Part shown: positions 37,189 through 44,092 of the stretch, piece by piece | Layout of the letters: every line of letters starts with the position of its first letter | How positions within the stretch are numbered: the first letter of the stretch is position 1 | From: Paecilomyces variotii | Taxonomy: Eukaryota | Strand: one strand, 5' to 3' | DNA length: 64,000 bases | Assembly (NCBI GenBank): GCA_004022145.1 | Contig: RCNU01000010.1 | Notes under the pieces: generated by a model | Told to the model about the DNA's origin: nothing | What the model saw: only the letters and a program-made list of their open reading frames with translations | Database searches by the model: none | Program-made: the position numbers and the translations under genes

Positions 37189-38422
37189 TTAAATCGGTGG
37201 AAGAATCTTAGCAGCTCTCATTCGGTCAAATGAGGTAGTATACCCCTTGACAGTTGGGATACTCTCCTCAAAGCCGATCGAGCGCGCTTTGTCAATGGAG
37301 TATTCCCTGTTGAAATCACCAGCTTCGATCAAGAAGGCCACAAACTTCCAGTTTGTTATCTCGAGATAACCTGTTTTCAATCCATGCTTCTGAACCAGGT
37401 TCTGCCAGGCACTTTTGTTCTTCTCCACAAATTCTTCGACCGGTGTGGTGTTTTCTGTAGGACCGCTGCCCTTGAGACCGAAGTACGAGCACAGGCCCGG
37501 CCAAACGTCCGCCCAGGTTACAACCTCACCATCCGTGATGTTGAAAATGGACGCATTTGGACACTTATCACGGTTAAGGGAAACATAGATCTCCATCTTG
37601 GCCAGAATATCCTGGAACGTGTCGGTATGGGTGGCTCTGTAACTCTTTTCCGTCCCTGGGAATGGAACAGTGGCGCCTGGGCCATTTACTTCACGCTGGA
37701 GAGTAAGATAGAAGGCGACTCCTTGCACGACATTCATCACGTTTCTACCGGGAACGAAACCCACAATCGCGTCTGGCCGAATCTCAGAGAAGGTCCACTT
37801 CTTTCCCTGAGACAGTTCTTTCAGAACGTCATGCTGAGAGTAGTAGAAGATGTTGCTCGCCCAGGGCTCCGGGATACGAGGGGCATCCTCCTTCAATGGA
37901 GCAGAAATGGTCACCTTATCGGGGAATTCAACGCCATAACTCTTGCCACCGGTTTGCAGGATGACAGTTTCCAGATTAGGGGCGACCTCGTTGATGGCCG
38001 TGATTGCGACACGGATAAGCTCCGTATTAACCTTCCTCAGTGATTGGAAGTCCCCGGTCTGAATGTATGCTAATGTAATTATGAGCCTCTGTCTTCTTCA
38101 AGAAAGCACATGCAGAGAGTTCTAGGACCCAGCGAAACATACCGCAGAAGTATACAATACTGACTGTCTCGACTTGCTCTACTTTCTCCTTTAGAGCCTT
38201 CACAACGCTCTCGACAGAACCCGTGAGATCAATACCCGAGACCAGATTAATGCGGGGATCCGCAGGAAGGTAAGCAGCTTCTTTGGTCAATGGCCTGTTG
38301 CACAGCCCTGTGATTCGATGAAACGTCGTTGGAGAGGGGTAGTTGACACTCGCATTCAGCAGCGCCCATCCTGATATGCCTGAGGCTCCGAAGACAAGAC
38401 AATGCTTTCCGTTTTGAGACAT
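37189..38422 (-). CDS. PRISE-family (progesterone 5-beta-reductase/SirQ-like) short-chain reductase, one intron at about 38071-38142
   Basis: LVFGASGISG, LQTGGKSYG, FYYSQ, IRPDAIVGF, FNITDG and KARSIGF. Confidence 0.87.
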
Positions 38423-39491
38423 ATTGCGAAGCTGAAATGATTCCTTTCTCCGGAGACGTTGAAGTTAAGAAGAGATGCAGTTTCCCAGATGCCTATCAAG
38501 AGAAGGTCCCTCGACTTACCCCTCCAGCACTTATATAATGAGTGGGTCTTCGGTACTTGATTCATCTTCTTTGATCCCGGATAATTGACTGCTTGGTCCT
38601 GTATTTGTAATCCGCCAATCAGACGGGTAAAGTGGGCTTCACTCCGAGCCTTAGTTGGAGATATAGTACAGACAAGCTGCAGGAAAGCAACTGTCCTTAT
38701 TTGCTTTTGATAGTCAGAAGATAGTATTAGAGATCATTCCGGAGTGCGATCTGCGGAGGACATCTGACAAACCTGAACGTAGCAGTCTGTCAGAGTCTGC
38801 TGAATAGTCAATAGATCAAAAGAACTGCATGTAGCACTTGCTTTAGATACCGATACAAGATGCCCAATACACGAGTTTGGTTTATACAGCAACCTTTGTT
38901 GCCTCAGCTCACTTGACTTTCCCAGAGTGTATATATATATATATATCAACCTTGGATTATTCTATTTAACGAGTCAGGACTGCGGGCTCCTTTTTTGAAC
39001 GTTTCTAAATTCTGATCTGAGCGCGCATCAAATTATGGTGACTAGGCCGCATCGCGAGTACCCATGATCAAAACCTCAATACATGGCAGTTGTACGAGCT
39101 GGTATATGGCTTCAAAAGCGGTGCATTCTGGAGTATTCGATGTTGTTATTGAAGTCGAGGTCCTTTCCGTTCTGGGCGATACCACCAAGTATTCTGCCGC
39201 AACTTACCGCCTGCAGTTGACTTCGCCATCGCGAACTGGGTCGAAATTCGTTAAGTCAAAGCTCCGTAAATTAAATTGCCAGCCAGATCTATTTATTGTA
39301 TCGCGACGTATCCCGGTCAAGTCGTACCTATCTCAATTGATCTCATCCTTCCAAAGATCCCGGACATCTCACGATCCTCGGAACACTCGCCAACGCGAAT
39401 AACGCCTCGAAAGCAACGCGCTCGTGAGCGCTGAAGAGGTATTGGAGAAGTTCCCTATCCAAACCTCCAAGGGAGAGCAGAGAAAGCCAAA

Positions 39492-40538
39492 ATGCCGAAA
39501 TATAAGTACCCTTTTGATCCTTGGAGTTGCCGTGGACGTTGACTGACCTGCTGTGCACTCTTCTGTAGGTCCTTCCATCATCAAGCCGCAAACGTCAAGC
39601 ATTCAGCAGCGCGAAGTGCCCTGTTAGCAAAGAAGATATCGAGCTGAAATACTGACCGGATTGACTGTCTCAGGCGATTATTGTGATGTCTACTTGACGC
39701 ACGACTCGATGAGCGTGCGCAAGGCGCATAATTCGGGAAGAAACCATCTGAGAAACGTGGTGGAATACTATCAACGTATGGCTTTACTACCCTTTTGGGC
39801 TTGCGTTTTTCGACGACCATATAACTGATTCGTTTCTGTTAGAAATTGGACATGAAAAGGCACAGTCGGTTATTGATTCTATCACAAGCTCATATGCTGC
39901 GGAGGGTCAGGTGAATCCCATGTTGCAACAAGGCGCACCGGGAGCATACCCTCCCCCTCCTCCGTTTGGCTTTCCAGGTAAGTCTGCAATTCAACAAGAC
40001 CTCCAGTGGATGTTTTCTAACTCATCCGTCCCTCAGGTCGACCAGGCCAGCTACCGCCACCACCTTTCGGCATGCCTGGCGGACCTGGTATTCCGCCGCC
40101 CGGCATGGTACCTCGTACGTCTCCCCTTTCCTATAACACCTTTTGTGTCTCTCCATCGCAGTAAAGCCTAACTATTTCCCGAATACAGCTCCTGGAGGTC
40201 GTGGCCTTCCTTTCCCTCCACCGTTCCCTCCTTCAGCAACAGGAACACCACCAACCGGTGGTTTCCCACCCCCATTGCCCAACATGCCAGGTGGTCTTCC
40301 TTTCCCTCCACCACCAGGAGGTCTGCCTCCTAACTTCCAAGTCCCTCCACCCGGTGCCCCTGGCGCCCCAGGCTTTCCACCTGTTCCTTCGATTCCCGGA
40401 CAGGCAGGACCAAGTCCGAGTCCCGGCCCTGGTGCAGCTGGATCGCCTCCCCCAGGCCCGGCAGGCTACGCAGCGCCTCCTGGTGGTGCACCACCGGGCC
40501 TTCCGGGTCCGCCTCCCGGTCTGGGAGATAAGCGATGA
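39492..40538 (+). CDS. U1C: U1 snRNP protein C; exons 39492-39501, 39559-39564, 39674-39775, 39843-39977, 40037-40114, 40189-40538
   Basis: Spliced [51 protein letters not shown] (U1-type zinc finger) with a Pro/Gly-rich tail. Confidence 0.93.
39502..39558 (+). other. Non-canonical AT-AC intron (57 nt) in U1C
   Basis: Begins ATAAGT, has branch GACTGAC at 39541-39547 and ends GCAC. Its removal restores the conserved reading frame. Confidence 0.8.
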
Positions 40539-41790
40539 TAAGTTCTATATGGCATAAAAAACTTTTCTTTTTTCTCTATGTTTGGTCTGGTCTGTCTGAT
40601 ACCGAGTTTCACATTGTGTTTTTTCTTACAATTTTCGGCATGTAATGCCCTATGTCTTCTTTAAATGAGACTCGCGAAATATCGCTTCTAGCAAAAATAA
40701 ACCCTGGCAGCTAAATTAATAGATATGCTAGGATATAAGCCCAAATAAACGGACACTCTTCACAACATCTACCCCTAAGGCATATCACATCTACACTCAC
40801 TCGAGACTAGTGCTACCATTCAATCGCCCCAACAGGCTACAAAATATGGTTACATACTACAGGTGAATATTGAAAAATGATTGTAAGTGAAAAGCGACAT
40901 CTATTCGTCATTCCCAGAATAAGCACTAATAATAACATAAATGTAGTATGGTACAGATCCGGACGAATCAAGGGACACGAGGAAGAAAAGTAGACGGAGC
41001 CCAGTATGGCCAAAAAAGGGAAAAGGGAAAAGAAAAACCGCATAACAATAGGAGAGTAGCAGAGGGAGAGACGCGGAGAGTGGGATCAGAAATAGATAGA
41101 TCTATACGGAACTTTCGGGTACTCTGATGGGTGGAATAACTTTCATGTATGTAACCTGAACGATAGTCGGTAAACTAAGGTAGGGTCAAGGAACTAGAAA
41201 AGATAATAGGTGAGGTATGCTCCGGAGGTTGAAAAAGGACCCTGACTTCTTTTTTCATCCTTTGCTCTCGAGGCGGGGGGGCTGCTCCTCTTTCTTAAGG
41301 GTATATGCTGACAGAAGAAAAATCCGCGAATTACAGCGCCAGAAGAAAAGACCCCACCAGGAAAAGGGAGCTGTCTTCGATGGAGGTGTCAGTTGCGTTT
41401 TTCTTTTAATAAAGACATCTCTCCAATTATGAAAAACCATAACCAGTACTCCTCGAGGTCAGCATGCGCCCCAGGGGAATGTGGAGTTCCCCTCAGAACG
41501 GAACAGGCACACGAAGTCCCACAAATGGCCCCAAGGCCAATTTTAACATGCATGCATCAGAACGCCAGTTGTAACAATACGAAGAAGAGACTCTCCTGAC
41601 AAGGACAGAATGAGAAAGAAAATGCTTAATACATAGGATTCCCACGGATAGAGATTCGACGAAAGTAGAACAGTCCGATCAAGAACCTTGATTAGTCAAT
41701 ACAGGAGAATGCAGCGCATGCAAAGACAACTGAGTATGAATTTGCCGTATCTTCATTTCGAACAAAGTGAAAGGAATGAGAACATTCTTT

Positions 41791-44092
41791 TCAATGTTCG
41801 TAGCCTGCCCCTCTCTGCCAAGGACTTGCATTGTGCTGAGCCCTGAATGCCTGCGGATTTGCCAGCGTTGCACCGCCGCGTGATCCCGGAGCAGGAGAGG
41901 GAGTCCGCCCAACGTACTCCGTTGTTGAGTACCCATTATTGTAACTTGGGGGCGGGCCTCGACTCTGCGACGAAGAGTTGCTGGAGCCGTTGCTCGGGAA
42001 CAGCGGTACCGACGGGTCAACAGGAGAGTGCGGAGATTGTCTAGCCGCATGCTGGGGCACAGCAATGCTATCATCGTTCTGGCGGCCGATACTGGCGCCG
42101 TTTCCACTAGAGAACGAGGTATCATCATCGTCGAACCCGGACTTGTATTGACCAGGTTTCAATTCTCCTCTGGCTGTAGCGCCCAGAGCATCGAGCTCAG
42201 TTGTCAACTGGGTTTGCGACTTGATGAACGATCCACGGTCGTCACGCATGGGCTGGTAGCGAGTGTCCGGATCTTTCGAGACGACAGCGTAGATAGAAGC
42301 GATCAAGACGAGGATCAGAAGAGTCAAGGCGAAGACTGCGTTGTAGATGAAGAAGACGACGCCCATAACACCTGTCACAATACCAGGCTGGTCGAAAACG
42401 TCACTGAAGACAAGGAGGAAGATAACGTTCAAGAAATTGACAGCGGCAATGGAGATGTTGTAAACGTTGGTCTTCTTGTCCATCCAAGGTCGGAGAACAC
42501 AGACTCCAATGAGGACGAGTGCTTCAATGATCACGAGAGCGACAGCTTGCACGGTCGGTGCTGCCTGGCTAAGACCAATAAACATACTCTTCACCAGGAT
42601 GTAGACAAGCACTGGAACGACGAAATAGTATGCAGTGGCTCGATACTGGACGTACAAGAAACCCCACTTGTTGAGACAAGTCGGGTCCGAGTAGAGGATA
42701 TAGGCCGGGTTCTTGTGCATGGAGACGGATCGCTTGGCCAGTCGGATAACCTTCAGTGCAGCCCAGCCCAGGGCGCCAGTCATTGAAACGAACATGATGA
42801 CAGCCAAGAGGACTTCGGCGGCAGAGTCGCGCTTGGTGAACTCCCACAAGCACAGGACGCACATCTGGGGATAACCGATCAGCGTCAATCGGAACAGAAT
42901 ACCTCTCAAGACAATCTTCCAGCCGTTTCTGAAATCCTGGAATTTGTCGCTCTTCATCTTGCCGGACTTCACAAGAAGCTCACAGATTCCCTTGAAGAGC
43001 GCGACGAAGAGCATGACAAACCCAACAAAAACGATGAAGAAGATCAGACCAGTCATGAAGATATTGGTCTCCTCGATATCCGCGCGGAACCCGACTCTAT
43101 TGATACCCCTGACAACGATCGCTTTCGTATTTCCGCTATCGCTGTTCGCCCTTTTCATGATATGGTTACCGGCTCGGACAGCCAGATCCTGGACATATTC
43201 CAGAGATCTCTTCTGTACGGACACGGATGTGGTAGCCAACTTCGTCAAAATCACCGACGGCGTACCACCTGTCGACCGCTGGTACCAAGTGCAAATAGTC
43301 TGCATGAATCCAACGTGAATGATACCCATACTCCACTGGAAGTTCTGCGTCCACGACTGCACGATGGGCGGTAGATGTATAGAGGTCAGGCCGATCATGG
43401 CCTGAGCTTGCATAAAGCTGAAGAGAGATAACGCGTTGGCGGCAACGTGAGCCGCAGTGTTCGAGTGGCCAAGTCCAGAAGTGATTGCAGAAGCAGCCAG
43501 ACCCAACCCAGCAATGACGGCGGTGGCCCAGCCCACACCCTTCTGATATACGGTCTTGCCATTGGACAGATCTGCTTGTACACATGCGATACTTTCCCCT
43601 GTCGTAGTAGAGTTGATGTAGACACGCACTTCGCCGTCCAGATCTGGGACTTGAAATGCGATACCTAGAAGTGGCACCATTAGCAAAGAACCGAGTGCCT
43701 CACCCTGTGTAACAGAACTCACCCGGAATCGCGTCGATCACGCTTTGGGGGATATCGAGAATGTTTGTCTTGATGTTGATTTGACCCGTGTTCATGGGAC
43801 AAAGACCCTCCAGATTCATCTCACAAGGGTTCAGAGTCTTCGTGATGGCTGTATAGCCATAAGCAATAACTTCCAGCTCTGCGACGACATGTCCGGAAAT
43901 GGACGACACTCCCACAATGTCGATGGCTATCGATCTGTTGTCTGGCGTGAATACAACATTGAAAAGACTTGCAGTGAAGCTCGAATTATCCTGGCACGGG
44001 TTCAACGAGTTGGATTCGATTAACCGGATGGCAGATACCAGCGGGGAGGAGCACAGGAAGACGAGGCATGACAGAAACGGGAGCAACCGCAT
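41791..44092 (-). CDS. FLC/Pkd2/Spray-family TRP-like membrane protein, intron 43665-43722
   Basis: Signal peptide, ML-like N-domain (FTASLFNVVFTP, LNPC..LCP), WTQNFQWSMG, WGFLYVQYR, LRPWMDKKTN and multiple TM helices. Confidence 0.92.

Follow-up and report, generated by a model that had tools for sequence, protein, structure and literature searches.

Structure of the U1C gene

The window analysed here, a stretch of 64 kilobases (kb) from Paecilomyces variotii contig RCNU01000010.1, carries on its plus strand the gene for U1C, a zinc-finger protein of U1, a small nuclear ribonucleoprotein (snRNP). A first-pass annotation had proposed that this gene needs an intron with AT and AC ends and U2-type signals, followed by a microexon. 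From 39492 the window reads ATGCCGAAAT, ATAAGTAC...TTGACTGACCTGCTGTGCAC, TCTTCT, GTAGGT...TCTCAG and GCGATTATTGT, letter for letter as in that description of the start codon, the introns, TCTTCT and the zinc-finger exon. Four public runs, all in the form of assembled contigs, were aligned to 39300-40700 (X1, X5, X7 and X15), and the predicted junctions were present in X1 and X7. The junctions exist in transcripts, and the AT-AC intron model of U1C is correct. The parts of the gene are as follows.

39291 to 39491, plus strand: 5' untranslated region, minimum extent (the X1 contig extends 9 nucleotides (nt) past 39300)
39492 to 39494, plus strand: start codon ATG
39492 to 39501, plus strand: coding part of exon 1, ATGCCGAAAT, encoding M P K and the first base of Phe4; the block ends at 39501 in both transcript contigs
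39502 to 39558, plus strand: intron 1, 57 nt, AT-AC, with joints in X1 and X7; U2-type by motif scoring
39502 to 39509, plus strand: intron 1 donor, /ATAAGTAC
39543 to 39547, plus strand: putative intron 1 branch site CTGAC, placed by its motif, with branch A at 39546, 12 nt from the 3' end
ending at 39558, plus strand: intron 1 acceptor GCAC/, final letters GTGCAC
39559 to 39564, plus strand: microexon TCTTCT, 6 nt, as found within the X7 joint
39565 to 39673, plus strand: intron 2, 109 nt, GT-AG, /GTAGGT...CAG/, removed in X7 and retained in X1
39674 to 39775, plus strand: exon 3, zf-U1 zinc-finger core (match to Pfam PF06220)
39776 to 39842, plus strand: intron 3, 67 nt, GT-AG; joint 39775>39843 in X1 and X7
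39843 to 39977, plus strand: exon 4
39978 to 40036, plus strand: intron 4, 59 nt, GT-AG, GTAAGT..CAG; joint 39974>40034, cut +3, in X1 and X7
40037 to 40114, plus strand: exon 5
40115 to 40188, plus strand: intron 5, 74 nt, GT-AG; joint 40114>40189 in X1 and X7
40189 to 40538, plus strand: coding part of exon 6, Pro/Gly-rich tail; stop codon TGA at 40536-40538

Splicing 39492-39501 to 39559-39564 and to 39674 onward in silico gave a protein of 226 amino acids (aa) that ends at the TGA at 40536-40538 and begins MPKFFCDYC, reproducing the predicted M-P-K-F-F-C-D-Y-C with the first zinc-finger Cys. Translation by script showed that the microexon completes Phe4, encodes Phe5 and supplies the first base of Cys6, and without the modelled processing of intron 1, microexon and intron 2 together Cys6 would not be encoded. 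Exon 3 alone scored 62.2 bits against the Pfam zf-U1 profile (PF06220, cut-off 22), covering profile positions 7-38 of 38. Because this match starts at position 7, the first six residues, including the first zinc Cys, must originate upstream of exon 3, and profile positions 1-6 are supplied by exon 1 and the microexon. The spliced model contains the N-terminal C-C-H-H residues that we take to be the zinc ligands, with C9, H24 and H30 forming invariant columns in alignment A1. Its nearest matches among the proteins listed came from Rasamsonia emersonii and Polytolypa hystricis, at 71% identity each, on which the organism is taken to be a Eurotiomycete.

Other ways of reading the 5' end had already been traced to early stops, and our script reproduced every one of those products. 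Retention of intron 1 yielded 16 aa before the TGA at 39540, joining the GT at 39506 to the AG at 39673 yielded MPKYKRLL*, and joining the same GT to the AG at 39568 yielded 30 aa before the stop TGA at 39645; the GT39506 donors were rejected as the true model for these early stops. A non-AUG start in the frame entering the microexon was rejected as well, since it lacks MPK, and a script scan of the 5' untranslated region (39291-39491) found no ATG. Use of another upstream exon joined to 39674, named beforehand as an outcome that would overturn the model, was discarded on the evidence of the X1 and X7 contigs, which pass directly from the 5' untranslated region into 39492-39501. Skipping of the microexon (39501 joined to 39674) stays in frame and would give MPKCDYC and 224 aa; no such form appeared in the X1 and X7 contigs, which could hide a minor form.

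Removal of intron 1 at its AT and AC borders

The X7 contig (organism A, study P3) joins 39501 to 39674 with TCTTCT between, whereas the X1 contig (organism A, study P1) joins 39501 to 39559, skipping 57 nt from AT to AC, and then runs unbroken through 39559-39775, so that intron 2 is retained. Introns 3, 4 and 5 are removed in both contigs, which lack four or five introns and are therefore transcript-derived. The transcript extends past 40700, with contigs running beyond 40695. Both joints excise intron 1 exactly at its AT and AC borders, as expected of a type II AT-AC intron. No letters are common to both flanks of the intron 1 joint ('both' = 0), and because the bases flanking the two ends differ, the borders cannot slide. 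Chance is not at issue, since the junctions were seen in RNA-derived contigs.

In the DNA run X15 a single 47.6-kb contig crosses 39300-40700 with 0 differences from the window and no joints, although this run may be the window's own source. It shows the unspliced form only, and thus no spliced retrocopy. A finding of G at 39502 and 39558 had been set out as the sign of an assembly error; X15 has A and C, so A39502 and C39558 stand and are not shown to be errors. At these two positions X1, X5 and X7 agree with the window wherever they cover them. X5 is an unspliced 8.4-kb contig from a food-fermentation metatranscriptome with ~97.6% identity to the window (over 1.4 kb, 33 substitutions and 6 gaps). 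Both AT and AC are kept in this relative, whose intron 1 donor is ATGAGT, with 6 of the 57 intron positions changed (39504, 39512, 39521, 39523, 39531 and 39536).

Splice signals of the U2 type

The intron 1 donor matches the U2-type sequence /ATAAGT without mismatch (0/6), and among the AT-AC donors of the window and five homologous metagenome loci described below, five of six are ATAAGT and the sixth is ATATGT. The consensus is that of PMC5029451, which refers to Sheth et al. 2006 and calls it very strong for U2-type AT-AC introns. Against the U12 5' motif ATATCCTT the window donor has 5/8 mismatches, and the six AT-AC sequences have 4-5/8. The best matches to the U12 branch motif TCCTTAAC carried 2-4 mismatches and lay 24-41 nt from the 3' end, and none of the six sequences scored had a match within 2 mismatches near the 3' end. 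The U12-type arrangement, a /ATATCCTT donor with a TCCTTAAC branch 10-15 nt from the 3' end, was thus absent. The branch motif is of the ordinary fungal CTRAY type (CTGAC), and the stretch from it to the AC is free of AG, which first appears at 39567.

Surveys reported in PMC2396436 and PMC10639083 describe the Ascomycota as having neither minor small nuclear RNAs (snRNAs) nor minor introns. An Rfam scan of both strands of the whole 64-kb window returned 0 families at the gathering score, and so no minor snRNA within the window that it covers. The proposal that the signals are U2-type and not U12-type holds up on the donor (/ATAAGT, 6/6), the CTGAC branch motif and the lack of U12 motifs. With contigs from two studies and the Ascomycota literature added, the broader proposal that U1C needs such an AT-AC intron is borne out, and by its motifs intron 1 belongs to the U2-type (type II) AT-AC class as a new conserved member.

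Homologous introns in metagenome loci

A scan of metagenome contigs retained the best 80 of 309 relatives, a ranking that favours loci with an uninterrupted N-terminus. The loci are not phylogenetically independent, and the GT-AG loci L052, L053, L054 and L056 are near-identical. They were classified as follows.

59 of 80 loci: no intron before the zinc finger
15 of 80 loci: intron 1 only (12 GT-AG; 1 GC-AG, L075; 2 AT-AC, L037 and L063)
4 of 80 loci: intron 1, 6-nt microexon and intron 2 (AT-AC then GT-AG as in the window, L016, L020 and L067; GT-AG twice, L058)
1 of 80 loci: intron 2 only (L045)
1 of 80 loci: truncated, unclassifiable (L060)

Intron 1 is present in 19 of the 80 loci, always after the tenth coding base, in 5 AT-AC, 13 GT-AG and 1 GC-AG versions. 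The orthologues are thus not all GT-AG (5 of the 19 intron-bearing loci are AT-AC), and the suggested comparison for conserved ends found AT and AC kept in X5 and in 5 of the 80 metagenome loci. The same intron and microexon architecture occurs in other fungi. The terminal bases covary strictly: AT is paired with AC in 6 of 6 cases (the window and five loci) and GT or GC with AG in 14 of 14 loci, and no mixed pair (AT-AG, GT/GC-AC) occurs among the 20 sequences. The AT-AC versions are 50-57 nt long and all six have the branch motif 11-12 nt from the end, compared with lengths of 51-151 nt and branch spacings of 9-25 nt for the GT/GC-AG versions (an extra value of 3 nt in L078 is a pattern artefact). 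When the six AT-AC versions were aligned, conservation was confined to ATAWGT, the branch motif CTRAY, the AC at the end and the flanking coding sequence.

Several loci vary the splice signals themselves. In L075 (~1437-1500) intron 1 is a 51-nt GC-AG intron, /GCAAGC...CCAG/, so that all three recognised U2-type terminal pairs are found at one intron position. The related GT-AG loci L046, L052, L053, L054 and L056 have the weak donor /GTAACC without G at +5 and a very C-rich intron, and L051 has /GTACCT; weak donors in this group mean that the first U1C intron has a poor 5' site in some GT-AG lineages too. The intron 2 donor is /GTAGGT in the window (39565-39570), L016, L020, L067 and L045, which takes in all loci that combine the AT-AC intron with the microexon, and /GTATGT in L058, the GT-AG version. 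An attempt to assign taxa to the loci by summed blastx against named models was abandoned, as Pro-rich tails and fused models made the ranking meaningless.

Mis-modelled proteins and taxonomic spread

A protein search with the 66-aa stop-to-stop frame around exon 3 listed 120 of 437 proteins. Only 12 of the 120 models start with MPKFFCDYC; in 4 others it follows an upstream extension, which leaves 104 without the true N-terminus. Many of the wrong N-termini are literal read-through of genomic splice signals, which can be decoded as follows.

MPKYK, reading AAAT/ATAAGT: 9 models (Saccharata proteae, Aureobasidium sp., Rhizodiscina lignyota, Lambiella insularis)
MH[SI][SF]VG, reading ATGCAC/TCTTCT/GTAGGT: 6 models (Polytolypa hystricis, Penicillium sp. 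IBT 31633x, Gomphillus americanus)
...LFCDYC before the finger, AC acceptor: 3 models (Microthyrium microscopicum, Penicillium sp. IBT 18751x)
CRNIC or CQNIS, AT donor, the same donor in frame +1: 4 models, P0062, P0072, P0110 and P0119 (P. atrosanguineum, P. maclennaniae, Neophaeotheca triangularis)
MPKC... with ...VFCDYC, GT donor and AG acceptor: 5 of 5 (Gaeumannomyces tritici)
...VFCDYC, AG acceptor: Botrytis sinoallii
MPKCDYC, GT donor, microexon skipped by the predictor: Hymenoscyphus fraxineus
MPKFFC[KET] then GDYC, intron 2 only: 5 models (two Fusarium, Epichloe, Paramyrothecium, Lachnellula)

The 'VG' of the MH[SI][SF]VG models implies /GTAGGT at intron 2. Placed on NCBI lineages, models with AT-AC signatures belong to Eurotiomycetes, Dothideomycetes and Lecanoromycetes, and those with GT-AG signatures to sordariomyceta. 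The simplest history would be a single switch between GT-AG and AT-AC early in the Pezizomycotina, with many later losses of either intron.

Eight Penicillium models (P0024, P0044, P0090, P0096, P0099, P0102, P0113 and P0114) of 592-780 aa have the U1C finger and tail fused to an unrelated upstream protein, apparently because the first exon and the microexon cannot be modelled under GT-AG rules.

Partly spliced forms

Loss of intron 1 with retention of intron 2, as in X1, gives a 32-aa product ending at the TGA at 39645-39647. This was the only form assembled in X1, and the fully spliced form was assembled in X7. Two metagenome loci resemble further intermediates: L037 (1-1045) and L045 (1-1030) are ~98% identical over the 5' untranslated region, coding sequence and 3' untranslated region, and L037 carries the AT-AC intron only and L045 intron 2 only. 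Because reciprocal intron loss between such close genomes is very unlikely, we infer from these sequences that L037 and L045 are probably partly spliced transcripts of sister strains with the layout of intron 1, microexon and intron 2. If this reading is right, the introns can leave in either order, and each partly spliced form builds up to a level that allows assembly. As only 6 nt separate an acceptor from the donor that follows, two splicing complexes would hardly fit at once, so sequential and slower removal is expected; removal of the two introns around the microexon does appear to be slow, and either one appears able to go first. In the Pro-rich tail of L045, a 1-nt deletion also shifts the frame.

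A probable locked-in AT-AC intron and its alternatives

We consider it probable that this U1C gene, from a Eurotiomycete, contains a real, U2-dependent type II AT-AC intron, followed by a 6-nt microexon and a GT-AG intron, that all three are needed for the first zinc Cys, and that the AT-AC state is a constitutive, locked-in variant. By the established scheme of pairing between snRNAs and 5' splice sites, U1 and U6 would recognise /AUAAGU by its positions +2 to +7 and tolerate the mismatches at -1 (U) and +1 (A). Branching would take place at A 39546, and in the second catalytic step a pair between A(+1) and the last base, C, would substitute for the usual G-G terminal interaction. The AC would be chosen for its constant distance of 11-12 nt from the branch, with no intervening AG. 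An ancestral GT-AG intron at this position could have undergone a compensated double change to AT-AC, which purifying selection would then hold in place, as a single reversion (to AT-AG or GT-AC) would block exon ligation. Since reversion at one end should block the second step and so trap the pair, long conservation of AT-AC needs no function beyond keeping the frame; intron 1 would be old and constitutive, and no regulatory role would be required.

Several points weigh against this account. The splicing evidence consists of assembled contigs and not reads, with X1 and X7 labelled 'RNA?' by guess, and contigs give no isoform proportions and can hide minor alternative junctions. X15 is possibly the sample behind the window, and hence no independent confirmation of A39502 and C39558. 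The case against minor snRNAs combines an Ascomycota-wide statement in the literature with the scan of the 64-kb window, and the spread across classes was decoded from mis-predicted protein N-termini and not from the DNA of named genomes. Motifs and work in other organisms are what suggest the branch point, the A-C terminal interaction and a dependence on the U1 and U2 snRNPs. Finally, X1, L037 and L045 indicate that removal is not always prompt, which would fit either a regulated or a merely slow step.

The first-pass annotation had gone further and viewed the intron as a regulatory gate, in which the mismatched /AU donor, perhaps with the crowded microexon, ties productive U1C mRNA to the activity of U1 snRNP or of U1C itself while forms with premature stops go to nonsense-mediated decay; we regard such a gate as unlikely. 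Every non-productive U1C form does carry an early stop, a premature-stop isoform does exist (the 32-aa form of X1, the sole form assembled there), and the abundance of partly spliced forms sufficient for assembly in X1 and in L037/L045 is a weak hint in the same direction. According to PMC4383343, U1-C alters how tightly U1 snRNP binds mismatched 5' splice sites, +1 and -1 changes among them, and U1C acts on exactly the type of site that its own mRNA carries. Human U1 snRNP proteins are cross-regulated through splicing (PMC3798272), and the AT-AC state appears persistent across three fungal classes. Yet the alignment of the six AT-AC versions contains no conserved cis element beyond the core splice signals, and the divergence of intron 1 from X5 (6/57) is within the range of the other introns (intron 5, 1/74; intron 3, 2/67; intron 2, 5/109; intron 4, 10/59). 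Because 14 of the 19 loci with this intron have it as GT-AG or GC-AG, and 59 of the 80 loci have no intron before the finger, the AT-AC state is dispensable for U1C. The human binding data moreover predict a loop that reinforces itself instead of a homeostat: in human U1 snRNP, mismatched 5' splice sites such as +1C and -1C are further stabilised by U1-C (PMC4383343), so more U1C should favour its own splicing, a positive feedback. The long conservation of AT-AC is equally explained by a fitness valley between AT-AC and GT-AG, and intron retention beside a 6-nt exon is expected from crowding alone. We judge autoregulation somewhat unlikely. In its most extended form, where the AT-AC donor and the crowded microexon make up a rate-limiting checkpoint needing U1C-loaded U1 snRNP, three fungal classes would make U1C synthesis depend on how 5' splice-site recognition is working, with retained forms sent to nonsense-mediated decay; this version too we regard as unlikely.

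Two further explanations concern the intron itself. Survival of a U12-type AT-AC intron in an ascomycete would account for the AT-AC termini and for the short distance of 11-12 nt between the branch and the 3' end, which is also typical of U12-type introns, but it is highly improbable given a donor that is the exact U2-type /ATAAGT consensus, a /ATATCCTT motif mismatched at 4-5/8 in all six sequences, an ordinary fungal CTRAY branch motif with no TCCTTAAC-like branch near the 3' end, the Ascomycota surveys that report no minor snRNAs or minor introns (PMC2396436, PMC10639083) and the lack of a minor snRNA in the window. It is just as hard to credit an artefact, whether an assembly or sequencing error at the intron ends, template switching by reverse transcriptase or mis-assembly. 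Non-canonical RNA-seq junctions are often artefacts, and the present evidence is made of contigs, with X15 possibly the window's own source. Set against this, the 39501 junction recurs in two studies (X1 and X7), the joint has no shared letters of the kind that template switching would need, splicing restores the universally conserved MPKFFCDYC N-terminus, and AT and AC are found in the diverged X5 and in five independent metagenome loci whose intron sequence is otherwise unalignable.

Relation to known introns and exons

U2-type AT-AC introns are very rare, with 24 counted among ~610,000 introns of five animal and plant species (Sheth et al. 2006, PMC1557818), and the same article reports that their borders are conserved between distant species. 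AT-AC pairs are in general conserved more strongly than GC-AG pairs (Frey and Pucker, PMC7072748), and AT-AC introns make up 0.03% of those in A. niger gene models (PMC4084796). The U1C intron is thus probably one of a handful of AT-AC introns per genome. Like the human SCN4A and SCN5A introns, which have AT and AC ends and a 5' site that follows the U2 consensus except at +1 (PMC1557818), it combines non-canonical termini with a major-type donor. It differs in lying in a filamentous ascomycete and in the gene of a U1 snRNP protein, in being 57 nt long, in having the next 5' splice site 6 nt on, and in being assigned to the U2 type by its motifs.

Two other parallels come from yeast. An engineered S. 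cerevisiae intron with G1A and a 3' AG-to-AC change splices (Parker and Siliciano 1993, as cited in PMC5029451), showing the same compensating terminal pair in an organism without a minor spliceosome, and this compensation explains the strict covariation of AT with AC and of GT with AG. That intron is a laboratory construct, whereas the U1C intron is natural, essential for the reading frame and, by its distribution, apparently old in evolution. The nested AT-AC intron of yeast RPL30 is a natural AT-AC junction in an ascomycete without U12 machinery, but is described as a side product of 1-2% with a 5' site unlike /ATAAGT, while the U1C intron lies on the productive path and matches the consensus (PMC5029451). 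For filamentous fungi, the cases that PMC1557818 mentions are xylanase genes only, as hypothesised AT-AC introns; obligatory U2-type AT-AC splicing is now documented in fungi expected to lack a minor spliceosome.

The cross-regulation of human U1C and U1-70K likewise ties expression of a U1 snRNP protein to alternative splicing with an unproductive mRNA. It acts on U1-70K through an alternative exon and was demonstrated by knock-down (PMC3798272), whereas in fungal U1C no regulatory element was found. The microexon has parallels in the 20-nt microexon of Trichoderma Xlr2 (PMC11121469) and the 1-nt exon of Fusarium CYP621A (PMC12940212), tiny exons that encode zinc ligands or restore the frame and that were overlooked by annotation; these two reports present microexons as characterised in very few genes of filamentous fungi. 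That of U1C differs in being 6 nt long, in standing beside a non-canonical intron and in its apparent presence across classes, and switch-like skipping was not seen in the contigs. Full-text searches of the literature returned no account of fungal U1C with an AT-AC intron or a microexon, although supplementary tables of splice-site surveys (e.g. PMC7072748, PMC4084796) might list the intron by locus. One apparent report of AT-AC introns, PMC3091305, was rejected because its matches were 'KS-AT-ACP' domain strings.

Allowing one AT-AC intron and a 6-nt exon would correct the annotation of U1C across Eurotiomycetes, Dothideomycetes and Lecanoromycetes, where wrong models lose the first zinc ligand with MPKFFC and many have invented N-termini or fusions to neighbouring genes. 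The homologous AT-AC and GT-AG/GC-AG introns also offer a natural covariation record of the interaction between terminal bases in the second step, and of the constraint that a non-AG acceptor lies a fixed 11-12 nt from the branch. Should intron 1 sense U1C dosage after all, it would provide a compact genetic handle on 5' splice-site proofreading.

Surroundings of the locus

Upstream of U1C, a (TA)n microsatellite of ~8-9 units occupies 38930-38946, ~550 nt from the start codon, and an open frame of 302 aa runs on the minus strand at 37189-38097. Downstream, an open frame on the minus strand at 41791-43737 encodes a hydrophobic, membrane-protein-like sequence of 648 aa.

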